64,000 nt of DNA from an uncultured Gammaproteobacteria bacterium (GCA_964641255.1 CAZXMM010000001.1:681795-745794), one strand, 5' to 3'; positions 11,322-32,538 are shown, numbered from the stretch's first letter. Translations and numbers: made by a program. Notes: generated from the sequence alone by a model not told the origin.

Positions 11322-11474
11322 TGGTAAATTTTTGCCTGAAGTCGTGTTACTTCTTTTGTATTTGTTTCCAGAGCCAAACACCCAAGAGTACTAAATCAAC
11401 CAAAACGATGATTGTAAAGAGACTTCCGAAAAGTCCGAATCCTCCCATCATACCTCCATATCGGCCAAAACCCA

Positions 11475-11699
11475 TCATAAATGGTCACCTCCTTTTATTA
11501 TTGCCTCCGTCTGTTTTGGAGGACATTTTGTATCTGCATAGGAACAAAAGACACAGCAAACACCTTCTTTGGGTTTCAACATGTCGCCGCAATTCTGACA
11601 TTTATAAAAATGCTGGCAGGCATCAGTTGGCATCTCGGCCTCCTGTGTCGTGTGGCAATTGGGACAAGTAAGATGTGCTTTTGTAACAACTTGATTCAT
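11475..11699 (-). CDS. GDCCVxC-domain small metal-binding protein
   Basis: 74 aa with CPNC, CQNCGD, GVCCVFC, a GDCCVxC-type cysteine pattern. Confidence 0.6.
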   Translation of the reverse strand: MNQVVTKAHLTCPNCHTTQEAEMPTDACQHFYKCQNCGDMLKPKEGVCCVFCSYADTKCPPKQTEAIIKGGDHL

Positions 11700-11711
11700 A
11701 AGCCAAGCAGA

Positions 11712-12176
11712 TCACTTCTGACTTTCCAAGTATATTTTCAAATTTATTCCCTCTTCCCGGATGTGCTTTCTGGCAGCAGCCGGTTCTACGAACAGGTTTG
11801 CAAGTCTATCAAGAATTCCGTATTTATCCCCATACTCGACATACGCAATCAGTCTCGATTTATTATCCGAAATTTTTTCTATCTGAAAATAGCCTTTTCC
11901 GGTTTTCAGTAGCGAGAAAGGGAAAGCCGGCTTATATTCTATATATTCGTTCGTCTTAATATCCGTAACTCTTGCAATCAGGTACAGGGGAAAGCCGCCG
12001 ATACGTTCCAGAAAATGAAATACACAACCCTTCTTTGATAATGTTCCTGAAATTGTTTTGCAGAAAACGTGGTCTTTGTGGTGCCATGTTTTGTAAAGCA
12101 GATCAATATGGGTTAAAAATCCGAAAACTGATTTGGCAGGAGCATTAATAAAAGTTTCTTCTTTTAGTGTAATCAT
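11712..12176 (-). CDS. SRPBCC (Bet v1/START-like) family protein
   Basis: 154 aa. Size and pattern fit a polyketide-cyclase/AHSA1-like fold. Weak call. Confidence 0.4.
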   Translation of the reverse strand: MITLKEETFINAPAKSVFGFLTHIDLLYKTWHHKDHVFCKTISGTLSKKGCVFHFLERIGGFPLYLIARVTDIKTNEYIEYKPAFPFSLLKTGKGYFQIEKISDNKSRLIAYVEYGDKYGILDRLANLFVEPAAARKHIREEGINLKIYLESQK

Positions 12177-12200
12177 ATTCTTATTTTCTCTTATCGGACA

Positions 12201-14420
12201 TTACTTTTGAATAGGTTCCGCGTTATTATCCGACGGTGCCTGTGGCTTGGGAATCTTTTTTAATGTTCTCGTATAAATCACCACTTTTGCATCCTTCATA
12301 AGTTTTGAGGAAAGCTGCTCGGAAAGCTGTGCGTGCTTCTCCTGAGTCAGACGTTCTTTAATAAATTCCTTCGAGTCTTCAAAGCTCAATTGTTCCGGCT
12401 CCGAACGGTCAAGGACTTCAACGATATAGATGTAGCCATTGGCCTCAAACGGCGTACCGATTTCTCCTTTGGGAATAGCCTGAACCTGCTCATGATATTG
12501 ATGTTTAACAATTTCTCCCATAAGATCCATTTCTTCCTCAACCCATTCTGTTACCTCGCCCCCCTTATCTTTGGTTTCTTCGTCTTCCGAATATTGCTTG
12601 GCAACAGAGGCAAAATCCTCTCCTTTTTTTAGTGGACCGGGAACGAGCTTTTTATATGCTTCGTTAGCTTTGTCGAAGGCTTTTTTATGCTCATCGTCGG
12701 TTGCGTTATCAGAGCCACCCGCACGGATGACAATCTGGCGGACTCTTGACTTAGCAGGTTTTATAAATTGTGATTTATTACGGTTGTAGTAATCCTCGAT
12801 TTCTTTATCTTCGATTTTAATTTTCTCATCGACTTCCTCCTGTTCAAGCATCTGAGCCAGGACTTTCAGGCGCATCTCATCTTTGCGCTCCTTTGTTTCA
12901 GTCTGGGATACCTGGCTTAAACTGTCTTCGTATAACAGCAGGCGCTCGATAATTTTCTCAACCAGTGCCTGCTTACCTTCAGTGCCGGCATATGAAGACA
13001 GAAACGAAAGCGGTAGTTCCTGATATTCTTCCCAGAATTCACCCAAAGTAAACCGTTTACCGTTGACGGTAAAGAGTGTCCTGTCGGCATTATCGGTATA
13101 GTATTTCTTTTCCGTCTCGATCAGGACTGCCGTTTGCACCTGTGAGCGGACTTCCTCAAAACTCTGCTGCCGTTCCGGCTGTTTGGAACTAAGTCTGGCA
13201 ATAACAAATGCGTCTTTGTCGGCAATAACATCGCTTATCTGCTCCGGATCCAGCCGGAAGATAGCTTCTTCATAACCAGGATCGTTTTCTCCTTTTGTCC
13301 TGGTTACTCCGGTCTGGGGAAGCGGAGAGCCGGTTATTTCCTGATACACCTGACCGAAGTCGCTTCCGGAGCGGATTTTGGATAAAGTCTGTTCGGCTTT
13401 TTCTTTAGCCTTCTTTTCATCAGTGCCTTTCGGAATGCGGATTTCGTAAACAACGGCTTGGGCTTTGACTAGATATTTATCTTTATTGGCATCATAGTAG
13501 TTACGCAGTTCCCAGTCGGCAGGGTCAGGAATAGCCAACACTGCCGGATCGCGGGTAATTGAGGCTCTATTTTTCAGGCCGGTAATGTAGTTCTGGACAA
13601 ACTGATCTTCCTTTTCGCTTTGCAGCTTCGTTTTTATTTCCTCACGTACGTCGGTCAGCGTTTTATCTCCGAAATCTTTTCTGTTGGCATCATAGTAGGC
13701 GCCGATATCACCCTCAGTTACTCCGAGTTGCCCTTTGTGCATCTGGGCATGAAGTTCATTCAGGTTTATTTCCTCAGTGATATGCTTCATCACATGGGAA
13801 AATTCTTTATCCTGGTCGGGTTTGCGGGTAGCCTGCCAGCGTTTGACGATTTCATCGGTGATCATTTCCTGGACGATCAGTGCATACCCTTGGGGAGACT
13901 TTAGCTGCTTTTGCGTTTCTTCGTCCTCAACAAGTGAAACCAGGTGTTTTTCAACATCTTCAATGGTGATTCTACCCCCGTCATATGCGGCAACGACGTC
14001 GGGAGCGGGCGGCCAGGGAGCAAAAATGTCTTCACGGAATCTGAAAACAAGGAAAGCGAGAACCACAATGACACCCAAAATAATTTTCTTCTTTTTAGAT
14101 AAGTGAATTTTGGGTAGAGGTAACCGTAATGGCTTACTTTCAGGCGGTTGCTCTCCGGCTTTTGTGGGTTCTATGGATTGTTCCGGATGAACTTCCTGAG
14201 GAGTAATTTCCTTCGGAATATCAACAACCTCCTTATCAAGTGTCTTTTTCCCGGATTGAATCCGCTCCGGTTTTTTTGGCAGAGGTTTCTGCTTCCGATC
14301 ACCACCGGAAAAACCCAGAGACTGCCGGATGTCAGTAAATACCTGACCCCAGCCCTCACCGGATTTGTCTTTAGCGGCTGCTTTCGGTTTGTGGTGGGAA
14401 GACATTGACTTTTGTTTCAT
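12201..14420 (-). CDS. Membrane-anchored periplasmic chaperone, PpiD/SurA-like (tentative)
   Basis: 739 aa, N-terminal TM helix (ILGVIVVLAFLVF), K/E-rich. Operon context with hflKC. Parvulin motif not clearly seen. Confidence 0.4.
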   Translation of the reverse strand: MKQKSMSSHHKPKAAAKDKSGEGWGQVFTDIRQSLGFSGGDRKQKPLPKKPERIQSGKKTLDKEVVDIPKEITPQEVHPEQSIEPTKAGEQPPESKPLRLPLPKIHLSKKKKIILGVIVVLAFLVFRFREDIFAPWPPAPDVVAAYDGGRITIEDVEKHLVSLVEDEETQKQLKSPQGYALIVQEMITDEIVKRWQATRKPDQDKEFSHVMKHITEEINLNELHAQMHKGQLGVTEGDIGAYYDANRKDFGDKTLTDVREEIKTKLQSEKEDQFVQNYITGLKNRASITRDPAVLAIPDPADWELRNYYDANKDKYLVKAQAVVYEIRIPKGTDEKKAKEKAEQTLSKIRSGSDFGQVYQEITGSPLPQTGVTRTKGENDPGYEEAIFRLDPEQISDVIADKDAFVIARLSSKQPERQQSFEEVRSQVQTAVLIETEKKYYTDNADRTLFTVNGKRFTLGEFWEEYQELPLSFLSSYAGTEGKQALVEKIIERLLLYEDSLSQVSQTETKERKDEMRLKVLAQMLEQEEVDEKIKIEDKEIEDYYNRNKSQFIKPAKSRVRQIVIRAGGSDNATDDEHKKAFDKANEAYKKLVPGPLKKGEDFASVAKQYSEDEETKDKGGEVTEWVEEEMDLMGEIVKHQYHEQVQAIPKGEIGTPFEANGYIYIVEVLDRSEPEQLSFEDSKEFIKERLTQEKHAQLSEQLSSKLMKDAKVVIYTRTLKKIPKPQAPSDNNAEPIQK

Positions 14421-15504
14421 TTCCTTCCAGTAATTTTAGATTAACCCGTTCTCCCGGTTTAACAATATACGTAACGATTCTGGGAAATATTTTCTCCATC
14501 CGTTCCAGGTACAGCCGGAAGCGAGTGACCTGCTCTCCGTAAATACTGCTGTTGGTTCTGTACTGCGTCAAAATCTCATTGAAGGCCACCGCTGAACCGC
14601 TGGCTTCATTGATTTGCGCAGTCGCTGAACTGCTGGCTTCGGTGATGAGCTTCTGCGCCTGACCACGGGCTTCCGGAATGACACTGTTTTTATACCCTTC
14701 GGCTTCATTGACAGTCTTGCTTTTATCCTCTCTAGCGCTTGAGACGTCACGGAACGCGTCAGCTACTTCGTCCGGCGGATAGGCCTTTTGAAAATTAACG
14801 CTGACCACAGCCAGACCGCTGTTATACCCGTCAAGCAGGGTCTGTGTCTCTTTCTGCAGCCGGTTCAAAACACTCTGGCGCTCCGAGGTAAGGATGTTAT
14901 CAACAGCTGTCTCTGCGCTCACTTTGGTCACTGCCGCCCGTACGGCATCCCGGACAATCTGATACGGCGCATAGTCAATATTAAACAAATAATCGGCGGG
15001 TTCCCTGATCTGGTACTGGACAATGACCTCGTAATCAACAATATTAGTGTCCCCGCTTAACACCTGCAATTTACCCGGTTGTTCGGGATGTTTGGGATGC
15101 TCCGGTTCGGGGCTCAGGAGGCCGACGCTTTCGCGTCTGACTTCGGAAACATTCACAATGGTTTCGCGGTCAACCGGCCACGGCAGACGATAATGCAGAC
15201 CTTCCGATACTTTGGGACTGACTACTTTGCCGAAACGGGTAACTACCGCCGCTTCTCCGGGTTTAACGATATAAATGCCGGAAAGAAAATAAACGGCCAC
15301 AATAATTTTGACAATATTCCCGGAAATATAGCGGGCATTGACGTGGGCAAAGGCCTGTTTGATGTCAGCCAGGGATGATGATCCGTCGGCTGACCGGATT
15401 TTGGCCATAACAGACTGAATCAACCGCACCAGTATACCGACAACCGTGAGTATGCGTTTGGTGATCTCTGCTAACAGTTGTTTTATTTTGTTCATTTGTT
15501 CCAT
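14371..15504 (-). CDS. hflK: HflK-like SPFH/band-7 protein
   Basis: TM helix then SPFH core (GEAAVVTRFGKV, DEVADAFRDVSSAREDK, YKNSVIPEARGQAQK). Confidence 0.75.
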   Translation of the reverse strand: MEQMNKIKQLLAEITKRILTVVGILVRLIQSVMAKIRSADGSSSLADIKQAFAHVNARYISGNIVKIIVAVYFLSGIYIVKPGEAAVVTRFGKVVSPKVSEGLHYRLPWPVDRETIVNVSEVRRESVGLLSPEPEHPKHPEQPGKLQVLSGDTNIVDYEVIVQYQIREPADYLFNIDYAPYQIVRDAVRAAVTKVSAETAVDNILTSERQSVLNRLQKETQTLLDGYNSGLAVVSVNFQKAYPPDEVADAFRDVSSAREDKSKTVNEAEGYKNSVIPEARGQAQKLITEASSSATAQINEASGSAVAFNEILTQYRTNSSIYGEQVTRFRLYLERMEKIFPRIVTYIVKPGERVNLKLLEGNETKVNVFPPQTESSR

Positions 15505-15568
15505 ATAAAGATACCGACACTTCTTTACTTATCTTTCTTCACGATTTCAGTGCTTCATCTCAATCCGC

Positions 15569-16501
15569 TTACGGATTGAGATATTTTAAGAGCTCTGAAT
15601 CTGAAGGAAGAATAAGCGTTGTGCCCTGATTTATGACCTTGTCGTATGACTCAAGCGTACGCAGGAACTGGTAAAATGCCGGATCCTTACCAAATGCCTG
15701 AGCATAAATCCGGATTGCCTGAGCCTCACCCTCTCCCTTAATCCGGTTTGATTCTTCCTGGGCTTTAGACAAAAGAGTGGTTTTCTCGGCATCTGCTTCG
15801 GCTCTGATCTTTGTTGCTTCTTCAGTACCCTCAGAGCGCAGCTGCCTGGCTATCTGCTGGCGTTCTGCGCGCATACGCTGAAATACGCTTTGTCTGTTTG
15901 CCTCAGGGAAGTTAAGCTGTTTGAGCCGCACATCGGCAACTTTAAAACCGTACGAGCGTGTACGCTCATCTGTTTGCTTGGTAAGACCCGCAAGCATTTC
16001 ATCCAGCTTCATCTGGCTTTGGTCGGTAGTGACCAGATTAGTCAACTCATACTGCGACAGTGCCACTCCGAGCTCGGACGTGAGAATATCGGATAGTCGT
16101 GATGATGCTCCCTGGGCATCTCTGACACTTTTGAAAAACTGTACCGGGTCATCTATCTGCCAGGTGGCATAGGCTTCTACTAAAATATTTTTCTTGTCCT
16201 TGGTCAGAAACTCCGTTTCGGTCAGATTATGGACCTGGATCCTTTTATCAAGTTTGATGAGATTTTGCAGCGGATCGGGAAGCTTGACATACAACCCCGG
16301 CTCTTTAATGGCGCGGACGGGACTGCCGAACTGTGAAACGATAGCGTATTGTGTCGCGTCTACCTGAAACGCAACCAAAGTTGAAAGAATCAGTAAAATT
16401 CCGACTCCTAAACCAATTAACATTTTCGGCTGACGCAGCATCTGCCAACTGATTCTGCTTCTTGCCTGATCTATGAATGATGATTGTGTTCTGTTTCTCA
16501 T
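15569..16501 (-). CDS. hflC: HflC-like SPFH protein
   Basis: Start moved to ATG at 16501 (GGAGGTG RBS, MRNRTQSS). The longer track ORF overlaps the upstream gene. YAIVSQFGSP and RIYAQAFGKDPAFYQFLRTLESY are HflC-like. Confidence 0.75.
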   Translation of the reverse strand: MRNRTQSSFIDQARSRISWQMLRQPKMLIGLGVGILLILSTLVAFQVDATQYAIVSQFGSPVRAIKEPGLYVKLPDPLQNLIKLDKRIQVHNLTETEFLTKDKKNILVEAYATWQIDDPVQFFKSVRDAQGASSRLSDILTSELGVALSQYELTNLVTTDQSQMKLDEMLAGLTKQTDERTRSYGFKVADVRLKQLNFPEANRQSVFQRMRAERQQIARQLRSEGTEEATKIRAEADAEKTTLLSKAQEESNRIKGEGEAQAIRIYAQAFGKDPAFYQFLRTLESYDKVINQGTTLILPSDSELLKYLNP

Positions 16502-16514
16502 AAATTCACCTCCT

Positions 16515-18068
16515 TTACGGCTGGGCAGTTTTTCCATTAGTAATCCACAAATCGGTGGAATTAGTTTCCACCCGCGGATCGAGAATGTATTTTTTAATGT
16601 TTGGCAATACTTTTTCCAGAGACTCAAGGTATAAGCGGGTACGGGTAACCTGGGGAGCATTCTGGTAGGCAGTGAGTTTTTTACTGAAACGTTCTGCTTC
16701 ACCGGTGGCAAGCGCGATCTTACTGGCTTTTTCCGCTTCTGCAGTGGTCACCTGTTTAGTAGCTTCTCCCCGGGCAACAGCGACTGTTTCGTTTTTATAC
16801 GCCAGGGCTTCATTCATATATGTGTTTTTGTCTTCTCTAGCACTGGCCACATCCAAAAATGCGTCAGCTACTTCGCCCGGCGGAGTCACCGAAAGCAGTT
16901 GAACATTGGTTACTTTTATTCCGGTGTTATGTTCTTTGAGTAAATTTTGCGTCCCGCTCGTAGTTTGTGCCAAGATCGCACTTCTTGAAGCGGTTAACAA
17001 ATCGTCGACACCTCTTTGAGCAACCGCGGCTCTAAACGCTGTTTCCGTCTCTTTGGCAAGTAAATTTTCCGGATTTTGGATGCTAAAAAGATAATCGGCG
17101 GGATTCGTAATCGTATACTGAACTGTTAATTTGGTATTAATAAGGTTCGTGTCACCGGTAAGCACTAAAGATGCGTCCGTCTGAACCTGGCGCACTTCGT
17201 CCACATTGACTCTGGCTATGGTATCAACCAGAGGAACCCGGGCATGCAGCCCTGGCCCGAACGAACCGACAACTTTTCCGAATCTGGAAACAACGGCCTG
17301 TTCGCCCATGGGAACGGTATAGACACCGGAAAGCAGGATAAAAAGAACCGCAATTCCTCCGAGGTACGCGAGCATCCGCTTATTATGCAAAAAGGCCAGA
17401 TGATGGTGTCCTTCAATATGATTGGGTAATGCCTGTTTGGTCCGCAGGGCATGAATGGCTGACTCGGCAATTTCCCAGCCGGAAGTAACGATCAGAACAA
17501 TCACAAATATCGCGGCCAGTTTATCCAGAGCAGGAAACCCAACGGCAGCAGCAATAAGCCCTACAACGACAAGAACCGAAGCATACAGATCCATCCGCGA
17601 ATGATATCCGCTGGCAATAAGGGAAAGGGAATTGGTGGCACGACCAACGAACTCTTTGTACCTTGCAGTGAAGTAGGTAATGGCTATAGTTAAAAATGCC
17701 CCGATGGTCACCAGCCAGATATTTCTGAGATCAGGTGTTTCTGAGGCGCCGGTTACTTCCCGGAAAATATCCAGCGCCGAGAAAAACATCAGACCGGAGA
17801 CGATCAGGGCAACGATATTTTCAATTGTTCCCGCCTGCAACCGACGTCTGGCTTCCCAGGCCGCAGATAAAAGCCCTAAAAGTACAAAGACGGAAACAAA
17901 GACATCCCCGACAGAATGCCAGGCACTGGCTTTAAGTGATAAACTACCCGATGAGGAAGCGAGGAAAAACTTGAGAAGGACGAGAATTACATTAGCAACA
18001 ATGGTGACGACAATGGTTTTTTCTTTCCGGTTCATAGTTAGGTAATATGAAATCTCTGGGCAGCACAA
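16515..18068 (-). CDS. Fusion: cation-diffusion-facilitator-like TM domain plus HflK-like SPFH domain
   Basis: N-terminal 6-TM region with CDF-like HxxxD motifs (AWHSVGD, SGYHSRMD). C-terminal GEQAVVSRFGKV...ADAFLDVASAREDK...YKNETVAVARGEATK is HflK-like. Confidence 0.6.
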   Translation of the reverse strand: MCCPEISYYLTMNRKEKTIVVTIVANVILVLLKFFLASSSGSLSLKASAWHSVGDVFVSVFVLLGLLSAAWEARRRLQAGTIENIVALIVSGLMFFSALDIFREVTGASETPDLRNIWLVTIGAFLTIAITYFTARYKEFVGRATNSLSLIASGYHSRMDLYASVLVVVGLIAAAVGFPALDKLAAIFVIVLIVTSGWEIAESAIHALRTKQALPNHIEGHHHLAFLHNKRMLAYLGGIAVLFILLSGVYTVPMGEQAVVSRFGKVVGSFGPGLHARVPLVDTIARVNVDEVRQVQTDASLVLTGDTNLINTKLTVQYTITNPADYLFSIQNPENLLAKETETAFRAAVAQRGVDDLLTASRSAILAQTTSGTQNLLKEHNTGIKVTNVQLLSVTPPGEVADAFLDVASAREDKNTYMNEALAYKNETVAVARGEATKQVTTAEAEKASKIALATGEAERFSKKLTAYQNAPQVTRTRLYLESLEKVLPNIKKYILDPRVETNSTDLWITNGKTAQP

Positions 18069-18083
18069 TAACTTATTATTTTA

Positions 18084-18096
18084 CTACAAATTGTAG
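18084..18096. promoter_or_regulatory. BlaI/MecI-family operator dyad CTACA-AAT-TGTAG
   Basis: Perfect 5+3+5 palindrome, identical 15-mer (TACTACAAATTGTAG) to the site at 31328..31342. Lies between the dsbA-like gene (18139) and the CDF-hflK operon start (18068). Confidence 0.45.
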
Positions 18097-18138
18097 GAGA
18101 TTTATCGGCTGAATTCAAGAGGTTGAAGTATCAGCAGT

Positions 18139-19071: not shown

Positions 19072-19075
19072 AGGT

Positions 19076-20272: not shown

Positions 20273-20274
20273 AA

Positions 20275-22179: not shown

Positions 22180-22220
22180 AATTTTATTGTACCGCGTATT
22201 GGTTTCATAGGTCTAAACTA

Positions 22221-22697
22221 TTATTGTTTTAAGTCGCCGATATAGAAACCTTTTAATAACTCTCTGGCCTGAGCCGGATGCGGACCTTTGTTATTGGTTG
22301 GGCGTTCGTTAAACAGTGTCGTAGCATCCTTCCCACAACCTCCGATTATTGCCTTGCCACCCGGGTGCTTCGGAATAAACTCAGTCACGTTATAGACTTT
22401 GCCCTCAATAGCTAACCAACAATCATTTTCAGAGTTATGAATTGCAATCTCCTCCAACGTGTATGTCTTTGCTGCTTGCGAAGGGCTGCCGGAAATCTGA
22501 GATTCCCCCTGAACAGCAGTCGTTGGTGAATTCTGTAAAGTTGAACCTTCAGGCTGAGGGGAAAATTTGGATGGTTTATTGGAAAATAGTGCATATCCAC
22601 CCAGAAGCAAAATACCGACTACTACTGCACCTATTATTAAAGGATTCGTCGGTTGTTTTGGTTGGTCTGGATTAGTGTTTATATCCATAATTTCCAC
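22221..22697 (-). CDS. Membrane-anchored cytochrome b5-like heme-binding protein
   Basis: N-terminal TM, then EEIAIHNSENDCWLAIEGKVYNVTEFIPKHPGG (HPGG motif). Confidence 0.6.
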   Translation of the reverse strand: MEIMDINTNPDQPKQPTNPLIIGAVVVGILLLGGYALFSNKPSKFSPQPEGSTLQNSPTTAVQGESQISGSPSQAAKTYTLEEIAIHNSENDCWLAIEGKVYNVTEFIPKHPGGKAIIGGCGKDATTLFNERPTNNKGPHPAQARELLKGFYIGDLKQ

Positions 22698-22703
22698 CTC
22701 CTC

Positions 22704-23624: not shown

Positions 23625-25749
23625 AGCCGATCACTAGAACCGGAGGAATGAGTAGGTTCCCGTACTGGACAAATAAAACATCAGTAGGCGACCTAAACTC
23701 AAAGACTGCCCGCCCTGAAGATTTACTCGGTATTGCTGCCAGGTCCTTGTCGGTAGCCAGATAATCGATGGTGTTTGACAGGAAGGCTACATTGTCGCGG
23801 TTGTTGCCCAGGAACTGATCGTCTGCCAGAGTACTGGAACCCACCACAACCAGACGGGTGTCTCCTTTTTCAGCAAGTGCGGCAAGAGTCACTTCCTTGG
23901 CATTCGGCTTCAGGCTTGCTACCATCTGCGGGGAGATATTAAAACTTCCTTCTGTTTTTCCCGCATTCGGACCGGTCGCAAGAAGTTTCTTCTGGGTTAT
24001 TCCGTCTTTTGTCTCAAGCGTGACGGAGCTTGGCCAGCCCAAACTGATACTCTTGACCGTTGCCAGTGGTGAAAAATTAGTATCCGCCGGAAGAGCCCGC
24101 AACCAGTAGGGATACTGAGCCAGATAGCGCTGACCACCCTGCCCTCCGAAAGCCAGGGTTTCTGAAAGCTGCAGGTCATATACCAAATCGGTATTAACGG
24201 TGAGGCCATACTCTTTAAGTACCCCTAACATCGGTGAAGTGCTGGCTTGAGCCGAAAGAGTCTGCTGGCTGACATTCACACCGCTGACCATTACCAGAGC
24301 TTTTCCGCCGTTATTCAAATATTCCTTAAGGGTGGCGGAAGCAGTACTTTGGTTTTGACTGCTGCCGTCATCTATGACCAACAAAGCTGATACATCTTTG
24401 ACAGCTGCCGCATCTCCTTCCGAAATAGTTTTAGTCTGGTATTGTGTTGAAAGCAGTTCATTTAATATCTGATTCTGCGAGTATCCGCCTTGCATGATAC
24501 CAATCGTCTGCTCTTTCTCGTTTGTCAACTTTCTGATCCTGCGGGTCAACTGATATTCAAGGTCCGAAGAATCCGACACAAAAGGAATGCTTTCGGTTTT
24601 GTCACCGTAACGCACGGCAATTCCCAGAACTCCTGCCTGGACTTCAAATTTTCCCGAACCAACGCTATTGAACTGCACTTCCCTGATACCCGCTGATTGA
24701 GCTTCGGAAATGTCCTGGCTGCTTTCGGGATAAACCACACGCGTTTTAACGTTCCGGCTCAATTTTTCATAATCCTTCAGAAGATCAGTAATGTCCCTGG
24801 CAACCAGCTGGATCTGAGCGGGTAACTCACGGGATTGATAAACCGTAATAGTGACAATGTCCGGCAGGTTCCTGATGGTCTGCCTGGTGCCGGCCGACAA
24901 AGTGAAAAGTCTGGCCTGGGTAATATCCAGACGGATCGGATACGAAGACAAAAGAATGTTAGAGACAATACCGATGCCTGCGATAAGCCCGAATGCAAAA
25001 TTCAGTTTTCTCTTTTCAGCAGGATTTTCCAGCGTCTTTCTTTCGGAAAGCTTGGTGACAGCGGCTGCTAAGAATAAACCGGTTATGGTAAGAAAATAAA
25101 AAACGTCACGGATGTCCAAAAGTCCCCGGGCAATGTTTTCTCCATGGGTTAATACTGACAATTCCGCCGCAATTCTGCTGAAAGGAAACGGCAGCATCTG
25201 GGTGACAAAATCCAGTCCGATAATAATGAGTACAAACCCGACTGCAGCCGAAAGTAGAAAGCTGCTGATGGCGTTTTTAACATAGGCTGAAGCAGCAATG
25301 CCGATGGATAAGAATGTAGCCCCGATGAACAACGCACCTATATACTGTCCGGCAATCTGTCCAATATCCGGCCGGGAGTAGGCTACTAGGGTCAGCGGTA
25401 AACCAATAGTTGTCAGCAGTATGATGATATAAAAAGAAAGCGCGCCGAAGAATTTTCCCAGGACAATTTCCAGCTCCGAGATCGGGTGAGCAAACAAAAG
25501 CTCCAGCGTCTCAGAGCGGTGCTCGTCGGTCAGAAGCTTCATTGAGAGGGCAGGTGCCAGAAGCAGTAAAAACCAGGGTAGGAGTTCAAAGTAAGGCCGC
25601 AAACTTGCCTCGCCTCCGACTAAAGCAGTACGGGTATAAATAAATATCGAAAGCAGTAAAAACGGCACGATTACCGTGTACGCCAACGCGCTGTTAACGT
25701 AACCGAGAAATTCTTTTTTGGCAATTCTTTTAATCAGATTTAGTTTCAT
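23566..25749 (-). CDS. ABC-2 permease fused to GldG-like auxiliary domain
   Basis: Six N-terminal TM helices, large extracytoplasmic domain, C-terminal TM. Follows the ABC ATPase gene with a 4-nt gap. Confidence 0.5.
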   Translation of the reverse strand: MKLNLIKRIAKKEFLGYVNSALAYTVIVPFLLLSIFIYTRTALVGGEASLRPYFELLPWFLLLLAPALSMKLLTDEHRSETLELLFAHPISELEIVLGKFFGALSFYIIILLTTIGLPLTLVAYSRPDIGQIAGQYIGALFIGATFLSIGIAASAYVKNAISSFLLSAAVGFVLIIIGLDFVTQMLPFPFSRIAAELSVLTHGENIARGLLDIRDVFYFLTITGLFLAAAVTKLSERKTLENPAEKRKLNFAFGLIAGIGIVSNILLSSYPIRLDITQARLFTLSAGTRQTIRNLPDIVTITVYQSRELPAQIQLVARDITDLLKDYEKLSRNVKTRVVYPESSQDISEAQSAGIREVQFNSVGSGKFEVQAGVLGIAVRYGDKTESIPFVSDSSDLEYQLTRRIRKLTNEKEQTIGIMQGGYSQNQILNELLSTQYQTKTISEGDAAAVKDVSALLVIDDGSSQNQSTASATLKEYLNNGGKALVMVSGVNVSQQTLSAQASTSPMLGVLKEYGLTVNTDLVYDLQLSETLAFGGQGGQRYLAQYPYWLRALPADTNFSPLATVKSISLGWPSSVTLETKDGITQKKLLATGPNAGKTEGSFNISPQMVASLKPNAKEVTLAALAEKGDTRLVVVGSSTLADDQFLGNNRDNVAFLSNTIDYLATDKDLAAIPSKSSGRAVFEFRSPTDVLFVQYGNLLIPPVLVIGFAVYYLRRRKLLTQRTYVK

Positions 25750-25753
25750 AACT

Positions 25754-26662
25754 TTAATTACTGGTTAGTTGGCTAAAGACATCCTCAATAGCCCGCTCTT
25801 TGGCCACGAGGGTCAAAAGCGTCCATTTATTTTTAACGGCCAATTTATAAAGCTTTTCGCGGATATCCAGCTTCTTTTCAACTTCGACCACGAAGTAATC
25901 CTTTTTGGTTTCGTGAACATCAATAACTCCGTCAACCTTTTTCAGAGTCGACAAAACATGGTTTCCCTTAACTTCCATTTCAACGGTTTGAGACGAACTG
26001 CCCAGGCGACGCAGATTATCCGGTGTTTCATCGGCTACAATAGCGCCTTTATGGATAATAACCATCCGGTTTACGATTTTGGCCAGCTCACTTAAAACAT
26101 GGGAAGAAATAATAACGGTGCGCTCTTTTCCCAGGTCGCGGATAAGTGCGGCTATATCCTGGCGCTGATTGGGATCCAATCCTTCGGTCGGCTCATCCAG
26201 AATCAGAATATCTGGTTTCGTCAGAATTGCCTGAGAAAGCCCGACCCGTTGGCGGTATCCTTTGGAAAGCTCGGAGATCGGACGGTAATACACCTCTGCG
26301 ATTCCGCAGCGGTCGACCACAAAATCAATTGCCTCCTGCCGCTCACTTTTAGGAATCTCCTTCATGTCCGACCAAAATGATAGGTATTCCTCAACCGTCA
26401 GTTCCTCATATAACGGATTATTTTCCGGTAAAAATCCGATCCGCTTTTTAACGATTCCGTCTGTCTCGATATTCGTCTCATCAATAACGACCGTGCCCTT
26501 TGACGGAGGCAGGACTCCGGCGACCATCCGTAAGGTGGTTGTTTTTCCCGCACCGTTTGGTCCCAGAAGTCCAACAATTTCCCCTTGTTTTATTTTGAGG
26601 TTGACATCACTGACAACAAACTGCCTGTCAAACCGCTTTGATAATTTTGTCAATGTAATCAT
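25754..26662 (-). CDS. ABC transporter ATP-binding protein
   Basis: Walker A GPNGAGKTT, signature LSKGYRQRV, Walker B ILILDEPTEGLD. Confidence 0.85.
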   Translation of the reverse strand: MITLTKLSKRFDRQFVVSDVNLKIKQGEIVGLLGPNGAGKTTTLRMVAGVLPPSKGTVVIDETNIETDGIVKKRIGFLPENNPLYEELTVEEYLSFWSDMKEIPKSERQEAIDFVVDRCGIAEVYYRPISELSKGYRQRVGLSQAILTKPDILILDEPTEGLDPNQRQDIAALIRDLGKERTVIISSHVLSELAKIVNRMVIIHKGAIVADETPDNLRRLGSSSQTVEMEVKGNHVLSTLKKVDGVIDVHETKKDYFVVEVEKKLDIREKLYKLAVKNKWTLLTLVAKERAIEDVFSQLTSN

Positions 26663-26667
26663 ACGTT

Positions 26668-27795
26668 TTAATCACAATCTGTTCCTAATCCTCCGACACA
26701 GTTTTCTGTCGGCGGTTTACCCCGCTCGGGACATTTTTCAGAATAAATACACGCTCTGTCCGTTACTTCCGAAAGCTGTTTGCCTGAGATTTCGGCAGCC
26801 GCAGTATTAAAGCTCATAACAATTCTGTCCAGGTCCTTAAACTCGTACTCCCTCCAATTACCGGTTTGTTTATCTCCGTTTACATACCAACTGACTTCGG
26901 ATGGCAAGTTTGCCTTCCAGGAGTCAATAAGCTGACCCAGGGTGACGCCGGTTTTATGCTTATGGATTACTTCTTCAGTGTCTTTGTGCGAATGAATATC
27001 GGGGTCTTTTTCAAAATATTCCGGGCGATCCTGAAGCAGAACTCTTTTCCCATTCACATATAAAGCAAGGTCTGCGTGTTCATGAACTTTTTCACCAGTT
27101 GATTGCCCGGAGGGCTTCGGAGCTTTAAGAATGGCGGCATTGATAAAGGTTTTAAAGTCCTCAGGAGTTTTGGGATTAGGAATTTTGTCACCGTTGAGAA
27201 AGAAGGTCGGCGTACCGGAAACGCCTAGCCTGGTACCCGAGTTTTTATCCCGTTCAACCCTGTCTTTTACCTCTTTTGAAGCCACATCCTTTTTAAATTG
27301 GTCCATATTAAGTCCGATTGCTTGGGCATAACCTTCGAATATTTTCGGATCGGCGGCTGGTTTCTCGCCCCAATTTTTCTGTTCATTAAATAGCTTGTCA
27401 TGCATCTCCCAGTATTTACCCTGCCTGGCAGCGGCTTCAACGGCAAGGGCGGCCGGCAGACCGTTTTTGTGTCCGGGGAGCGGGAAATAGCGATTGACAA
27501 AACGGACATCGGTCTTAAACTCCTCTGCCAGTTGTTTTATGAGAGGGTAATATGCACCGCAGGCCTCACATTCAAAATCCAGATACTCAACCAGAGTTAC
27601 AGAAGCTTCCTTGTTACCTTTAATATAATCGTCAGATACTACTTCAAGTAACTTTTTCTGCTCATCGGAAACGGGCGTGGAGTTATTCGTGGCGGAGGAT
27701 GGTGACGAACCCATTTTGCTGGCAAAAAATACTCCGCCCACCAAAACAACAACTGTAACGAGCATTATTCCTAATACAAATTTATCCTTAAACAT
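26668..27795 (-). CDS. Membrane-anchored DsbA-like thioredoxin with C-terminal Cys-rich extension
   Basis: CEAC active site, GTPTFFLNG cis-Pro region. About 140-aa C-terminal extension ending CVGGLGTDCD. Confidence 0.6.
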   Translation of the reverse strand: MFKDKFVLGIMLVTVVVLVGGVFFASKMGSSPSSATNNSTPVSDEQKKLLEVVSDDYIKGNKEASVTLVEYLDFECEACGAYYPLIKQLAEEFKTDVRFVNRYFPLPGHKNGLPAALAVEAAARQGKYWEMHDKLFNEQKNWGEKPAADPKIFEGYAQAIGLNMDQFKKDVASKEVKDRVERDKNSGTRLGVSGTPTFFLNGDKIPNPKTPEDFKTFINAAILKAPKPSGQSTGEKVHEHADLALYVNGKRVLLQDRPEYFEKDPDIHSHKDTEEVIHKHKTGVTLGQLIDSWKANLPSEVSWYVNGDKQTGNWREYEFKDLDRIVMSFNTAAAEISGKQLSEVTDRACIYSEKCPERGKPPTENCVGGLGTDCD

Positions 27796-27841
27796 ATTTT
27801 GTTATTTTACTATGTTTTGTAGTAATTTTTAAACCCTTTAT

Positions 27842-28057
27842 TTATGAGGCGACTTTCACCTCATATTCCAGTGATTTAATAACTTCAATAATTTTTCCCA
27901 GGTTAACCACATTCGGGTCAAAGGTAACGACTGTTTTTTGCTTGGCGTAATTTGTACTGGCCTCTTTGACACCTTTTAAGTCTTCCAGCTCAAAGTCAAT
28001 ATTCATGGCACAGCTCGTGCAATGCATACCGACAATTTTTAATGTTACTGTCTTCAT
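27842..28057 (-). CDS. copZ: CopZ-like heavy-metal-associated (HMA) copper chaperone
   Basis: 71 aa, GMHCTSCA (MxCxxC) ferredoxin-like HMA fold pattern. Confidence 0.8.
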   Translation of the reverse strand: MKTVTLKIVGMHCTSCAMNIDFELEDLKGVKEASTNYAKQKTVVTFDPNVVNLGKIIEVIKSLEYEVKVAS

Positions 28058-28065
28058 AGTTTTTA

Positions 28066-29100
28066 TCAGATGACGTTAATGTTTCCTTTAAACATGCCCA
28101 TGCTGCACATAAAGGCAAGCGGTCCCGGTGTTGTCGGTGCTGTAAATTCAATTACGTCAGACTGGCCGATCGGCACAACCCTTTGCAGTCCCAGCTTGGG
28201 AATCGTAAGCGACTGAGCACAGCCACCACCGCCCTGGTTAACAATCTTAAATTTTATTTTAGAACCAGCTCTGACATTGACAATTCCCGGATCCGTACTG
28301 TAGCCGTTTCTGGTAATAAAAATCGTCGCCTCCTTAACCGCCGTGGTGGTAGCTCCGGCCACTTTCCCTTCATCACAAAAACTAATCGTGCAGTTAATAC
28401 CCGTTAAAATACCATCAAGGGTAAAACTGCTGCCGCTTAGCGCTAACGCGCCGTTAAAGTTATACACGGCGACTAAAATAATTGCTCCGGCAGCAACCCG
28501 ATTAAACGTTCCGCTTAAAGTACTACCAAGCTTTCGGGCGGCGTAGCCGAGAAGAAAAAATAAAGGAGACGTCCCCAGCATAAAGACAAACATGGTGGTA
28601 GCTCCGGCAAGAGCAGATCCGGTTGAGATGGCATATGCCATCATCGCCTGCGTCGCTCCGCAGGGTATAAACACAGTCATGGCCCCGAGAAGTGCCGGAC
28701 CAAAAACAGCCTTACTCTTTGACTGGTTGCGCACCAATCGGGTGAGAAATTTTGGTGGTTGAATGACAAAGTAGCGGAATATCGGGTGAACCTGAAGTAA
28801 ATTCAGCGCCGTGCCGACCATAAATACAACCGCTGCAAATTGCAGAAAAACGCGGGCAGAAAGTGAAAGTTGGAACACTGATCCGAGTGATCCTAATAGT
28901 AATCCAAGCAGGGTGTATGCAATCAGCCGTGTGAACAGAAATGAAACTATCGGGAGAAGGTGACCAAACCGCTTGGCTTCCTCCTCAAGTTTATTCTCTG
29001 TCTGTTGGGCAACTGAGGTAGCGAGAAGTCCTCCCTGAACTGCCAGACAGGTAAGCCCGCCTGCAAATAATCCGGTGACAAATATTGTAGTTATATCCAT
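28066..29100 (-). CDS. DsbD_2/CcdA-like thiol-disulfide membrane protein fused to C-terminal cupredoxin-like domain
   Basis: TM region with GGLTC and IPCG cysteines. The C-terminal FMCSMGMFKGNINVI resembles the type-1 copper loop C-x-x-H-x-x-M with Met substitutions. Confidence 0.45.
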   Translation of the reverse strand: MDITTIFVTGLFAGGLTCLAVQGGLLATSVAQQTENKLEEEAKRFGHLLPIVSFLFTRLIAYTLLGLLLGSLGSVFQLSLSARVFLQFAAVVFMVGTALNLLQVHPIFRYFVIQPPKFLTRLVRNQSKSKAVFGPALLGAMTVFIPCGATQAMMAYAISTGSALAGATTMFVFMLGTSPLFFLLGYAARKLGSTLSGTFNRVAAGAIILVAVYNFNGALALSGSSFTLDGILTGINCTISFCDEGKVAGATTTAVKEATIFITRNGYSTDPGIVNVRAGSKIKFKIVNQGGGGCAQSLTIPKLGLQRVVPIGQSDVIEFTAPTTPGPLAFMCSMGMFKGNINVI

Positions 29101-29120
29101 AGTTCATATTTCAAGTTAGC

Positions 29121-29900
29121 TTACGATTGAAGTGCCTTGTCAATCATCGGCTTGATCTGATCGAAAGGCAAAGCACCGGGAACGAGCTGGGTATCACCTT
29201 TGGCGTCAATAATAATCGTACCCGGCGTACCCGTTACCCCTTCTTCTGATCCTTTAGCCATCTGATCTTTAACTTTCTGTGCCATTTCGCCGGAGTCCAG
29301 ACATTGCTTAAACGATGACTCGTTTAGTCCCAACTCCTTCGCCAACGGTACTAGCTTGTCCAGCGCAAACCCTGTGCCATTCCCTGATGTACGGGAAAAT
29401 ATCGCGTCTGCATATTTCCAGAACGACTCGTTTCCACCAAGTTTGCCGGCACATTCAGCCGCTTCGGCTTCTTTTTGAGCGTTAGCATGGAAAGAAAGCG
29501 GATAATGACGATATACCCATTTTACTTTATCTCCATACTCTTTCATGACTTGTTGCATTGTGGGGTGAAACCTAATACAAAATGGGCATTCTAAATCAGA
29601 ATATTCCACCATTACGACTTTGGCATTTTTGTTACCCCGATACCAGTCAGCATTGGTTACTTCCGGTTTCTTGGCTGCAGCTTGGGGTTGGGGTGCGCCT
29701 GCAGCAGCCGGAGCACCGGCAGCCTGATTGGTACCTGTCGTGGTTGTTCCAGCCACCGCAGCGCCCTTTTCAAGATACTTAACTTTGGTATACAGAGATC
29801 CGATGACAAACGAGGCAACTATGAGGATAAGTACCAGAACAATATTAAAATTACCGGAAAGTACATTTTTTAGGGGAGATAAGTTTTTTTCTTCTGTCAT
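29121..29900 (-). CDS. Membrane-anchored DsbA-like thioredoxin
   Basis: CPFC active site, VTGTPGTIIID cis-Pro region, N-terminal TM, Ala/Pro linker. Confidence 0.65.
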   Translation of the reverse strand: MTEEKNLSPLKNVLSGNFNIVLVLILIVASFVIGSLYTKVKYLEKGAAVAGTTTTGTNQAAGAPAAAGAPQPQAAAKKPEVTNADWYRGNKNAKVVMVEYSDLECPFCIRFHPTMQQVMKEYGDKVKWVYRHYPLSFHANAQKEAEAAECAGKLGGNESFWKYADAIFSRTSGNGTGFALDKLVPLAKELGLNESSFKQCLDSGEMAQKVKDQMAKGSEEGVTGTPGTIIIDAKGDTQLVPGALPFDQIKPMIDKALQS

Positions 29901-29921
29901 AGTAAAAGTATAAACTAATAT

Positions 29922-29940
29922 TACTACAAAGTGTAGTAAA
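29922..29940. promoter_or_regulatory. BlaI-family operator dyad TTACTACA-AAG-TGTAGTAA
   Basis: Perfect 8+3+8 palindrome with TACA/TGTA core. Lies between blaR1-like (29956) and dsbA-like (29900). Confidence 0.45.
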
Positions 29941-29955
29941 GTGTTATACCAATTG

Positions 29956-30960
29956 TCAATAGGAAACTGAAGTGAATATCACGGGGCTATAGAGGCGGGA
30001 AGACTGCGGGGATAAATCTTTTGAAGAAGCGTTCTGCTGACACGCATTGGAACAACTACCTGAACTAAAACAGGCCATTACCGCATCCTGACCGGATTGA
30101 TGGTATTCGACAGCCTGAACCGGAGCCATAGCCAAACTGCCCAGGACCATTACGGATAACGCACTGATGATGACATTTTTAACTGAAAGGCGGGGTGTTA
30201 AAGAGGTTTTTTGAATGAGAGTGTTGATTCTGGTTTCCAGCGTGTGGGTATCGGCAAAACCTGGTGCAGTTACATAAGCGGGGTATATATCATGGCGCAG
30301 AAGTTTAACTAAAATAGATCTAAGATGATCTTTACCCTGCTCCATTGCCATGATTGCACTCTTATCTGCCTGTAATTCTCTATGAGTTTGGTAATGAGAA
30401 ATAAAATCAGTTAGTAAGGGGAAGAACGGAAAGAGAGATTCGGTAAAAACTGCAAAGAGCATCACCAAAGTATCATTGTTTTCCAGGTGATATTTTTCGT
30501 GCCGGAGCACCGCTTCTATCTCAGATGATGTGGCCAGTGAGATCATCTGTGTAGAGATATATATTTTAGGTTTAGAAATCCCGAAACAAAATGCACCCAT
30601 CCGTTTGTCTTTAATAACACAGACTTTATGTTGCAGATCGAGTTTATTAATTATCGGGAGAATGGCACGATTATCCGTTAGCTTTTGTTCCAGCTCTCTT
30701 CTTTGCTGAACTATCCGCCAGGCTGTCAGAAGAACTTTTATCACTATATATAAGGCCAGGGCAGCTAACCCCCACAGGGTAAATTGCTTCATATTTAACT
30801 GAATCGCTTGGGGTGAAACAGATTGAATAACCTGCCTGCAGTAATAAACCGTGTTATGGAGAAAAAAGGGGATGTATTTGGCGCAGGCATTGTATGAGAG
30901 CGTTGCGAGTACAAGAAAGATTCCGGCAAAGATCCATAAAAATTTATTTGTTTTTATCAT
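29956..30960 (-). CDS. BlaR1/MecR1-like M56 metalloprotease (sensor-transducer) lacking the C-terminal penicillin-binding domain
   Basis: 4 TM helices. HEKYH zinc motif. 334 aa with Cys-rich tail (CFSSGSCSNAC). Overlaps blaI-like by 17 nt. Confidence 0.7.
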   Translation of the reverse strand: MIKTNKFLWIFAGIFLVLATLSYNACAKYIPFFLHNTVYYCRQVIQSVSPQAIQLNMKQFTLWGLAALALYIVIKVLLTAWRIVQQRRELEQKLTDNRAILPIINKLDLQHKVCVIKDKRMGAFCFGISKPKIYISTQMISLATSSEIEAVLRHEKYHLENNDTLVMLFAVFTESLFPFFPLLTDFISHYQTHRELQADKSAIMAMEQGKDHLRSILVKLLRHDIYPAYVTAPGFADTHTLETRINTLIQKTSLTPRLSVKNVIISALSVMVLGSLAMAPVQAVEYHQSGQDAVMACFSSGSCSNACQQNASSKDLSPQSSRLYSPVIFTSVSY

Positions 30961-31324
30961 ATTCGTGTAAGAGCTTTAGGAAATACTCTTTCTTTTCCTT
31001 CGGTAAACGGTCAATAGACTGGGCAAATGAAGCAAGCGCCGCATCCCCGAACGTCCCGAAAAATCTGTCCAACAATGTTCTGGCCATTTTCCGGCTGAAT
31101 TCCTCTTTAGTCTGCTTTGGAACAAAAACAACGGTGAATGCAGAAGTATCTTTATTTACTAACCCCTTATCGTGCAACCGTTCTAAAATCGTGGCTATTG
31201 TCGTATAAGCAAGATTCTTTGTTTTGTTTGTCTCTTCCACCACTTCGCGGATGGTACATTTTCCCAATGCCCATACAACATCCATAACTTCCTGTTCGAG
31301 CTCGCTTAAGGTTTTAGTCTTCAT
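30944..31324 (-). CDS. BlaI/MecI/CopY-family winged-helix repressor
   Basis: LSELEQEVMDVVWALGKCTIREVVE...AYTTIATILERLHDKGLV. No C-terminal CxC metal motif, so not CopY-type. Confidence 0.8.
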   Translation of the reverse strand: MKTKTLSELEQEVMDVVWALGKCTIREVVEETNKTKNLAYTTIATILERLHDKGLVNKDTSAFTVVFVPKQTKEEFSRKMARTLLDRFFGTFGDAALASFAQSIDRLPKEKKEYFLKLLHEYDKNK

Positions 31325-31329
31325 AGCTA

Positions 31330-31939: not shown

Positions 31940-31948
31940 AGGAAAACT

Positions 31949-32275: not shown

Positions 32276-32279
32276 AACT

Positions 32280-32534: not shown

Positions 32535-32538
32535 ACAT

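Follow-up and report, generated by a model that had tools for sequence, protein, structure and literature searches.

A putative BlaI/BlaR-switched metal and thiol stress island in prophage-like DNA attributed to a WWE3 bacterium

The island and its relatives

The DNA considered here is a stretch of 64 kb (CAZXMM010000001.1, 681795-745794; below, the window), in which a run of minus-strand genes for metal handling, thiol-disulfide chemistry and membrane proteostasis is headed by the genes of a BlaI-like repressor and a BlaR-like membrane metalloprotease, and in which palindromic dyads, the candidate operators of this pair, stand in front of the transcription units (Table 1). Nineteen genes of the run, which share one direction and are separated by short gaps between 11475 and 31324, had been listed in an earlier note made from the sequence alone. 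The families claimed for them are borne out by Pfam and NCBIfam for all but the 154-residue protein, which is the only one of the 19 without a match. A small membrane open reading frame (ORF) of 43 residues, absent from that list, brings the block to 20 genes, and its ATG overlaps the stop codon of the GDCCVxC gene. The same list had the block ending with blaR1-like and blaI, but in the direction of transcription blaI-blaR is the first unit and not the last. The two genes overlap by 17 nt in the window.

The cargo combines several kinds of function. All three DsbA-like proteins match DsbA-like/Thioredoxin_4 families in Pfam and NCBIfam. The translation of the ATPase shows IACPCALV, AIAVKAIFL and FADVGVTV, and the Lys of the fifth and the DxG of the sixth transmembrane (TM) helix are presumably, following the ZntA literature, signature residues of P1B-2 ATPases. 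In NCBIfam the protein reaches 503 bits against TIGR01512 versus 359 bits against the copper subfamily. Because of the CPC, Lys and ADVG residues, and because the best score is that of the Cd/Zn/Pb subfamily, the ATPase is read as P1B-2 and not as a copper pump. A purely copper island was rejected for the window, where this ATPase and a CDF transporter are both present; the related loci, however, are copper-rich. Within the last unit, a perfect 11-bp stem (ATCTCAATCCG / CGGATTGAGAT; 15540-15580, minus strand) spans the hflC stop codon with no T-run after it, and could be a transcript-processing or stability element.

Homologues of the BlaR-like protein number 153 at E < 1e-5, all of about 300-340 residues, and the named ones come from Patescibacteria (Microgenomates, Gottesmanbacteria). 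Related loci collected through such homologues, at 27-87% identity, amount to 46 genome loci, 44 of them non-redundant (cited by L numbers below). Among genomes, the complete one of candidate division WWE3 bacterium RAAC2_WWE3_1 (CP006914.1) matches best, with a BlaR 87% identical and cargo proteins 94-99% identical. Further loci belong to Woese-, Gottesman-, Levy-, Roizman- and Collierbacteria. The labels of several assemblies, assigned automatically, give other taxon names and were not trusted. Judged by these matches, the carrier of the island is a WWE3 bacterium, that is, one of the Patescibacteria or candidate phyla radiation (CPR). A Bacteroidetes origin, to which the GldA/F/G-like names and the many M56 proteins had seemed to point, was rejected on the strength of the same matches.

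Gene order is strongly kept in the 46 loci, with blaI-blaR followed by a DsbA-like gene almost without exception, and blaI lies next to blaR in all loci with enough sequence. Genes for DsbD-cupredoxin, CopZ, P1B ATPases and GDCCVxC proteins are often found near blaI-blaR-dsbA1, the GDCCVxC genes in mid-operon. Likewise, relatives of the 43-residue ORF sit between metal genes in six loci (L024, L026, L023, L019, L016, L025). The cargo is far better conserved than the regulators when L008, L009, L001 and L004 are compared with the window. For example, the L008 proteins are 82% (DsbA1), 84% (DsbD-cupredoxin) and 82% (ABC ATPase) identical to those of the window versus 38% for BlaR, which points to an exchange, or a fast evolution, of the sensor module on a conserved cargo.

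Table 1. Coordinates of the island, its predicted control sites and the features on either side, counted from the first nucleotide of the window (aa, amino acids).
Feature	Coordinates	Strand	Remarks
Metal/thiol stress island	11347-31345	minus (genes)	4 co-directional transcription units
Promoter P1	31336-31364	minus	TTGAAA-17-TACAAT; 10/12 matches; -10 = left half-site of O1
Operator O1 (predicted)	31327-31345	minus	gene strand TATCTACAATTTGTAGTAG; ends 2 nt before blaI ATG
blaI-like repressor	30944-31324	minus	126 aa; PF03965 E 1.1e-25
blaR-like M56 membrane metalloprotease	29956-30960	minus	334 aa; HEKYH; M56/M48
Promoter P2	29930-29959	minus	TTGACA-18-TACACT; -35 overlaps blaR stop codon; -10 = left half-site of O2
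Operator O2 (predicted)	29921-29939	minus	perfect 8+3+8 palindrome TTACTACACTTTGTAGTAA
DsbA-like thiol-disulfide oxidoreductase 1 (dsbA1)	29121-29900	minus	membrane-anchored; active site CPFC; Rcas_1661 family
DsbD_2 (CcdA-like) membrane thiol reductase fused to cupredoxin-like domain (Cupredoxin_1)	28066-29100	minus	cupredoxin part carries C...CxMxM
CopZ-like HMA metallochaperone	27842-28057	minus	MHCTSC
Promoter-like site P3	27804-27833	minus	TTTAAA-18-TAAAAT; 9/12 matches; spacer filled by O3
Operator O3 (predicted)	27807-27825	minus	asymmetric; gene strand TTACTACAAAACATAGTAA; one perfect half-site
DsbA-like protein 2 (dsbA2)	26668-27795	minus	CEAC; His/Cys-rich C-terminal extension
ABC exporter module	22704-26662	minus	three genes
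GldA-like ABC ATPase (ABC_tran)	25754-26662	minus	Pfam/NCBIfam
GldF/GldG-like permease-auxiliary fusion	23566-25749	minus	Pfam/NCBIfam
DUF4340 protein	22704-about 23576	minus	Pfam/NCBIfam
Cytochrome b5-like haem protein (Cyt-b5)	22221-22697	minus	membrane-anchored; Pfam
P1B-2 (Zn/Cd/Pb-type) ATPase	20275-22179	minus	no N-terminal HMA domain; CPC in TM4, Lys in TM5, ADVG in TM6
SufS-family cysteine desulfurase	19076-20272	minus	Pfam/NCBIfam
DsbA-like protein 3 (dsbA3)	18139-19071	minus	CYSC; Cys-rich membrane N-terminus
Promoter P4	18090-18118	minus	TTGAAT-17-TACAAT; -10 = left half-site of O4
Operator O4 (predicted)	18081-18099	minus	gene strand CTCCTACAATTTGTAGTAA
Membrane proteostasis and efflux module	12201-18035	minus	CDF-HflK, HflC, HflK, PpiD-like
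CDF-HflK fusion (CDF + Band_7)	16515-18035	minus	ATG start
HflC	15569-16501	minus	Pfam/NCBIfam
HflK	14371-15504	minus	Pfam/NCBIfam
PpiD-like protein	12201-14420	minus	triple rotamase; Pfam/NCBIfam
154-aa protein	11712-12176	minus	no family match in Pfam or NCBIfam
GDCCVxC protein	11475-11699	minus	NF041374 E 5e-27; 93.9 bits vs curated cutoff 40
43-aa Gly/Met-rich membrane ORF	11347-11478	minus	reads MMGFGRYGGMMGGFGLFG, then one membrane helix
Portal/adaptor gene	9432-11321		left of island
SU10-like phage structural module	31541-48333		right of island; phrog_5707, three small genes, capsid, amidase, tail fibre, LPD38 giant protein, endolysin-like gene
SU10-type major capsid gene	33451-34620		right of island; E 3e-44
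DISARM DrmE C-terminal domain protein	6459-9017	minus	defence-like cluster
NERD/helicase protein	4741-6456	minus	defence-like cluster
Large DEAD/Helicase_C protein	1386-4727	minus	defence-like cluster

Palindromes, promoters and their footprint

The near-identical dyads that had been placed at 31330, 29922 and 18084 are recovered by an exact-motif scan of the 64 kb, in which TACANNNTGTA occurs three times, at 18085, 29925 and 31331 (0.65 expected), and the extended CTACANNNTGTAG (13-mer core) is exact at those same three positions. The degenerate dyad reported at 27807..27825 is present as well; it reads TTACTATGTTTTGTAGTAA, with one perfect half-site. Scanning with the 17-mer TACTACANNNTGTAGTA at two mismatches or fewer returns four matches in the window, all in the island and identical with these four sites. 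At three mismatches or fewer there are six matches, a number reached in none of 100 shuffles. The operator consensus is TACTACA-N3-TGTAGTA, a palindrome of 17-19 bp, and its half-sites TACA and TGTA are those of the BlaI/MecI/CopY family (PMC7253601). The motif is missing from the other promoters of the window, which also holds a single blaI/blaR pair. Additional sites at 60280, 62217, 50756 and 31804 (1-3 mismatches) were taken as chance occurrences, the first of them lying inside a listed ORF (60092-61639).

The four dyads had been described as standing at operon heads, and this is where they are found: each lies in one of the sole sizeable intergenic gaps heading the gene runs, and each overlaps a promoter-like site. 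In three of the four cases the -10 hexamer is itself the left half-site of the palindrome. Since the -10 of P1 lies inside O1, and 2 nt separate the end of O1 from the start codon of blaI, the blaI mRNA would have no leader or almost none. The dyad at the promoter of blaI itself is as expected for autoregulation. No convincing intergenic terminators were predicted between the four units.

The palindrome is by no means confined to the window. The 44 non-redundant loci (729 kb) hold 80 sites with at most one mismatch, against 0.28 expected from base composition, and 64 of the 80 lie within 60 nt upstream of blaI (25), dsbA1 (34), dsbA2, dsbD-cupredoxin or a P1B ATPase. In 23 of 25 loci the counterpart of O1 is placed at -1 to +7 nt relative to the blaI ATG, and the -10 inside the operator is conserved. 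Similarly, 34 loci have an equivalent of O2 in the gap that separates the blaR stop codon from the dsbA-like gene; its left half-site always contains TACACT or TACAAT, TTGACA stands upstream, and the -35 zone holds TTGAC/A in 34/34 loci. The palindrome is thus kept at the same positions across dozens of loci despite BlaR identities of only 33-41%, and it is taken as a genuine footprint because the flanking intergenic DNA is not conserved. The right half, TGTAGTA, mirrors the left half and is conserved to the same degree. A variant, CACTACA...TGTAGTG, occurs in L045 and L046, which are the two loci with a BlaI only about 33-35% identical to that of the window, and an operator variant that tracks the BlaI clade is expected if BlaI is the binding protein.

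The two weaker or more distal sites of the window also recur. O3 is found with its asymmetry before dsbA2 in L001 and L005 (12 nt from operator end to ATG) and at the equivalent position in L003 and L004, and better palindromes stand upstream of dsbA2 in L008 and L013. O4 is kept before CDF-HflK in six relatives (L051-L054, L060, L067; 86-93% protein identity), in which the distances to the ATG and the upstream genes differ. It is absent from more distant genomes of higher guanine-plus-cytosine (GC) content that share only the operon of CDF-HflK, HflC, HflK and PpiD.

The remaining sites head genes for multicopper oxidases, plastocyanin-like cupredoxins, CsoR-like repressors (PF02583), a YtkA-like protein and EnvC-like M23 peptidases. 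Perfect operators are found 13-22 nt upstream of the genes for EnvC-like coiled-coil M23 peptidases in four loci (L016, 18734; L023, 17491; L026, 9575; L047, 9280), by which the predicted regulon would reach cell-wall remodelling in some genomes, reminiscent of CenIR and its control of a peptidoglycan hydrolase. Likewise, genes of CsoR/RcnR-type repressors (PF02583) are preceded by a BlaI-type operator in L012 (14784-15065), L036 (3704-3976), L037 (about 4380) and L040 (about 3270). This arrangement suggests a regulatory cascade from an envelope sensor to a cytoplasmic metal sensor.

The BlaI-BlaR pair and the proposed switch

The BlaI-like protein matches PF03965 (Penicillinase_R) over residues 6-104 and aligns with Staphylococcus aureus BlaI (1sd4; phmmer E 1e-8) over residues 6-113. 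The position aligned to the N101/F102 cleavage site of S. aureus BlaI reads S/F, within an 'SFA' that 38 homologues share without exception. The only Cys of the BlaI-like protein (C23) is N-terminal, and the C-terminal half has none. TIGR02698 (CopY/CopR) is the best NCBIfam match, at 47 bits versus a cutoff of 122. Direct sensing by the repressor, as in CopY, was considered and rejected, as there is no C-terminal CxC-x4/5-CxC motif.

The BlaR-like protein matches PF05569 (E 2.8e-16), carries the M56 HExxH core (HEKYH), and by profile matches the solved BlaR1 8exp (E 5e-8) over residues 56-273. It aligns to residues 102-324 of 8exp and stops just before the extracellular sensor domain of that protein. 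A transpeptidase or penicillin-binding domain was not found in it, neither PF00905 nor any other domain being detected; the protein ends about 50 residues past the last membrane helix and scores 36.7 bits against NF000326 versus a cutoff of 400. Domain search and alignment hence agree with the earlier description of a BlaR1 homologue that lacks the beta-lactam sensor and has a Cys-rich tail, and the tail proves to be conserved family-wide. There are two N-terminal helices, and three Cys fall in the last 40 residues, where the tail reads VEYH...DAVMAC-x5-C-x3-C. In an alignment of 36 homologues the zinc site (H154, E155, H158, E195, D199), C41, C125 and C297 are invariant, and H287, D292, C303 and C307 are nearly so. 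C41 belongs to a loop, conserved as H..T.YYC, that follows the first helix. More than 100 homologues show the tail pattern A-[IV]-E-x-H-x4/6-D-x-x-M-x-C-x5/6-C-x3-C, and both the tail and the loop cysteine persist in homologues of as little as about 35% identity. The E/H/D/M/C cluster of the tail looks like a set of soft-metal ligands. Because positive residues flank the cytoplasmic faces of the helices, and given the 8exp alignment, the first loop and the tail are predicted to face outward, the tail in place of the penicillin-binding domain.

These features are best explained as a whole by a four-unit stress island that the BlaI/BlaR pair switches through soft-metal or thiol sensing, a reading to which a probability of roughly three in four is given. 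It is very probable, from the sequence evidence, that the dyads are BlaI operators co-regulating these units. A thiophilic metal, or thiol stress caused by one, is favoured as the inducer with distinctly less assurance. The earlier proposal of one sensor-protease/repressor pair over the block is well supported in silico by the conserved dyads, their overlap with promoters and the site at the promoter of the pair itself. Its suggestion of a redox or metal signal rather than an antibiotic one is in line with the genes headed by operators across the family, which are thiol-disulfide and copper/heavy-metal genes.

In the proposed off state, a dimeric BlaI-family repressor would bind the operators and occlude the -10 element or the spacer. 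This would shut the blaI-blaR operon itself (unit 1); dsbA1, dsbD-cupredoxin and copZ (unit 2); the genes from dsbA2 through the ABC exporter to cytochrome b5, and probably on into the P1B-2 ATPase, sufS and dsbA3 by read-through (unit 3); and CDF-HflK, HflC, HflK, PpiD, the 154-residue protein, GDCCVxC and the small membrane ORF (unit 4). The BlaR tail would lie near the conserved loop with its His, Tyr-Tyr and Cys, and the Cys/His/Met cluster may bind a soft metal (Cu(I)/Ag, Cd, Zn or Hg) or change its thiol-disulfide state, by which the cytoplasmic protease domain would be activated. Activated BlaR would then cleave BlaI in the dimerisation helix at the conserved S/FA, and all four units would be derepressed.

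The closest precedent is the cyanobacterial pair PetR/PetP of Synechocystis sp. PCC 6803, in which a BlaI-type regulator is degraded with copper in dependence on a sensor-less M48/M56 protease (10.1101/2020.07.31.226407; PMC7896320). Common to both are overlapping repressor and protease genes in a two-gene operon, a protease without a penicillin-binding domain, an operator of xACA-N3-TGTx geometry and a cupredoxin among the targets (plastocyanin in the case of PetR). The metal signal and the removal of the repressor by proteolysis are features of PetR/PetP that are only proposed for the island. The outer operator base is T here versus G in PetR, whose operator is GACA-N3-TGTC (10.1101/2020.07.31.226407). 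PetP, compared by description, has three predicted N-terminal TM helices and conserved Met residues in the TM2-TM3 loop as proposed ligands, whereas the BlaR of the island has two helices, the H..YYC loop and a C-terminal tail of three Cys, its candidate ligands being H/Y/Y/C41 in the loop and E285, H287, D292, M, C297, C303 and C307 in the tail. Moreover, PetR serves as activator and as repressor in a small photosynthetic switch (petJ/petE), whereas the island would be a 20-kb mobile resistance and repair regulon with promoter-occluding sites only.

Other known systems share parts of the design. With the staphylococcal and Bacillus pairs BlaI/BlaR1 and MecI/MecR1 it has in common the Penicillinase_R fold, the M56 HExxH core, the adjacent genes, TACA/TGTA dyads that overlap promoters, a (here predicted) autoregulated pair and a residue pair that aligns with the N/F cleavage site. 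Unlike them, it has no transpeptidase sensor and no beta-lactamase or PBP2a target, its dyads have N3 spacing within a 17-bp palindrome, the regulon would comprise about 20 genes, and the residue pair is S/F and not N/F. The Scs (suppressor of copper sensitivity) and CcdA/DsbD-DsbA modules combine, as the island does, a DsbA-like CxxC protein with a DsbD/CcdA-like reductant transporter and a link to copper tolerance. The Scs module of Salmonella differs in being under Cpx and not BlaI/BlaR control, and the island differs also by its DsbD_2-cupredoxin fusion followed by CopZ. CopY/CopR of Firmicutes belong to the same repressor family and control, as is proposed for the island, a CopZ-type chaperone and a P1B ATPase. 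However, CopY senses copper itself, binding Cu(I) via a C-terminal CxC...CxC, and its cop box is KACA-NN-TGTA (PMC7253601), whereas the BlaI here has one N-terminal Cys, sensing is proposed to run via the membrane protease, and the spacer is N3 and not N2.

BlaR proteins without a transpeptidase domain are the majority, since about 6% of M56 proteins carry one (PMC13492132). Examples are CenI/CenR of Clostridioides difficile and the mycobacterial BlaI/BlaR, which resemble the present pair in having no such domain, a short C-terminal region and a regulon of envelope or physiology genes (PMC13492132). Their tails and regulons, in contrast, are unrelated to those of the island, and no metal or thiol gene content is reported for them. 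For Patescibacteria, no paper was found that links BlaI/BlaR to metal or thiol genes or that describes this BlaR family, its tail or its regulon.

Several observations weigh against the switch as proposed. No dyad is present in the 41-nt gap upstream of the P1B-2 ATPase, which holds a promoter-like TAGACC-18-TACAAT without an operator, nor in the 64-nt gap before hflK. Having no operator of their own, the P1B-2 ATPase, sufS and dsbA3 would be controlled by read-through from P3 or be expressed unregulated from TAGACC-18-TACAAT. O3 has a weak half-site, and O1 and O4 are off consensus at outer positions. The related loci were all chosen for encoding BlaR, and the background for the palindrome counts is their local flanking DNA and not the whole genome. 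About 10% of the BlaR family are without the last two tail cysteines, yet have the same gene order and operators. In the AlphaFold (AF2) model of BlaR, the protease core has a predicted local distance difference test (pLDDT) value above 90, but loop 38-54 and tail 285-334, the seat of the putative metal site, are below 50, too low for the model to bear on whether their cysteines cluster. Finally, the cargo is mixed, with a Zn/Cd/Pb-type ATPase, CDF, HMA and cupredoxin domains, proteostasis genes and, in some loci, M23 peptidases, and so points to no single inducer.

The alternative that survives best, though it is rated unlikely, is a general envelope or protein-folding stress switch like CenIR of C. 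difficile, which would respond to exported proteins that are misfolded or mis-oxidised, or to damage of the cell wall, and not to metals, the metal genes being part of a wider repair regulon. CenIR, for which no inducer is known, has a peptidoglycan hydrolase under its control (PMC13492132), and the perfect operators at M23 peptidase genes, the HflK/HflC and PpiD-like chaperone genes of the window and the fact that the near-universal partner is a DsbA-like oxidoreductase and not a metal pump would all fit such a role. However, the operator-headed genes are mostly copper/heavy-metal genes (multicopper oxidases, cupredoxins, CopZ, P1B ATPases, CsoR-like), GDCCVxC genes lie in mid-operon, and the conserved tail resembles a soft-metal ligand set. 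The envelope-stress and metal readings overlap, because soft metals cause exactly such thiol damage.

Somewhat less probable still is control of the proximal units only (the blaI-blaR operon itself, and dsbA1, dsbD-cupredoxin and copZ), with O3 and O4 weak or vestigial, the ABC exporter, ATPase, SufS and HflKC constitutive or otherwise regulated, and the island a mosaic. The retention of O3 with its exact asymmetry in four relatives, the good dsbA2 palindromes of L008 and L013, the persistence of O4 in six relatives despite changed spacing and upstream genes, the overlap of both sites with promoter-like sequences and the lack of predicted terminators between units all speak against it. It draws, on the other hand, on the blaI and dsbA1 sites being the only near-universal ones in the family, on the degenerate half of O3 and the operator-free gaps before the P1B-2 ATPase and hflK, on the dyad-free CDF-HflK operons of the more distant, higher-GC genomes, and on the identities in L008, which imply that modules were shuffled.

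That the dyads are no BlaI sites at all, being a conserved promoter or initial-transcribed-region element, the site of a regulator encoded elsewhere or the ends of small mobile elements, is very improbable: promoter function does explain part of the conservation, the left half-site being the -10 hexamer (TACAAT or TACACT), and BlaI binding is a prediction from the sequence, but the equally conserved, symmetric right half has no promoter role, the motif is missing from other window promoters, it accompanies blaI in nearly every locus, the promoter of blaI included, with the known half-site of the family and a variant that shifts with the BlaI clade, and it occurs as single copies at fixed distances from start codons and not as paired element ends.

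The four-unit switch matters because gene regulation in CPR bacteria, which are not growable alone, is almost unknown, and the island offers a complete testable circuit. Its parts would be a repressor, a protease sensor, a 17-bp operator, leaderless-looking promoters of sigma-70-like type and a defined regulon, and the circuit is shared, in conserved form, by WWE3, Gottesman-, Woese-, Levy-, Roizman- and Collierbacteria. With small proteins and a simple operator, the mechanism is testable without culturing the organism. The family-wide candidate ligand tail and the metal/thiol regulon would extend the emerging view of BlaI/BlaR pairs as general signal-to-proteolysis switches. The cytochrome b5 and blue-copper protein of WWE3, which were read as electron carriers in the RAAC2 genome paper (PMC3812714), may be cargo of such a stress island instead.

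Phage setting and outer features

The island is flanked by phage genes, with the portal/adaptor gene on its left and an SU10-like structural module on its right, and host genes with two tRNAs start near 50.9 kb. The structural module is shared by more than 30 IMG/VR contigs. In relatives of 33-39 kb from that database the portal gene is followed by phrog_5707 within about 0.1-0.3 kb, and at the same point the closest relatives (54-62 kb) hold other cargo, 6-20 kb long (DNA methylase, HerA-like ATPase, signal-peptidase-like proteins, methyltransferases). The site is read as a cargo hotspot of the phage because relatives carry unrelated cargo at exactly this spot. No BlaR relative was found in the IMG/VR viral contigs; hence the island is not common phage cargo.

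The borders can be placed closely. Homology to RAAC2_WWE3_1 begins inside O1, at 31342, and phage homology begins at about 31367-31374 on this side and ends at about 11208-11293 on the other. Two relatives (L051, L053) likewise have the portal gene after ppiD, and in L007 the phage junction of the window adjoins another blaI-blaR pair, of 50% and 37% identity. Nothing convincing was found in the way of att-like direct repeats at the island borders. As judged from these comparisons, the island is mobile cargo, inserted in a prophage at a hotspot that lies between portal and capsid genes.

The position of the island in a prophage points to a way in which metal tolerance could spread horizontally. 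A further-reaching proposal is tentative and rather doubtful. In it, the Cys/His/Met cluster of BlaR would be a direct sensor of a new kind, its thiols kept oxidised by the co-regulated DsbA-like protein and reduced or metal-bound under soft-metal attack, which would close a homeostatic feedback loop acting through proteolysis of BlaI, and the 20-kb island would be hotspot cargo of a temperate phage of CPR bacteria. If this is true, phages move a complete inducible heavy-metal defence between CPR organisms with tiny genomes.

Some features lie outside the island. A terminator-like hairpin at 31469-31516 (plus strand; 20-pair stem, T-rich tail) is found in the 216 bp that separate blaI from the phage gene at 31541, and it probably belongs to the phage, because it lies within the stretch homologous to related phage contigs. 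Left of the portal gene, a defence-like cluster of three genes occupies 1386-9017 on the minus strand; relatives of its three proteins were not found in the related viral contigs. Next to uppS, just past the right end of the phage-like region, are tRNA-Arg(TCT) at 51678-51753 and tRNA-His(GTG) at 52034-52106, which are possible landmarks for the integration site of the prophage.

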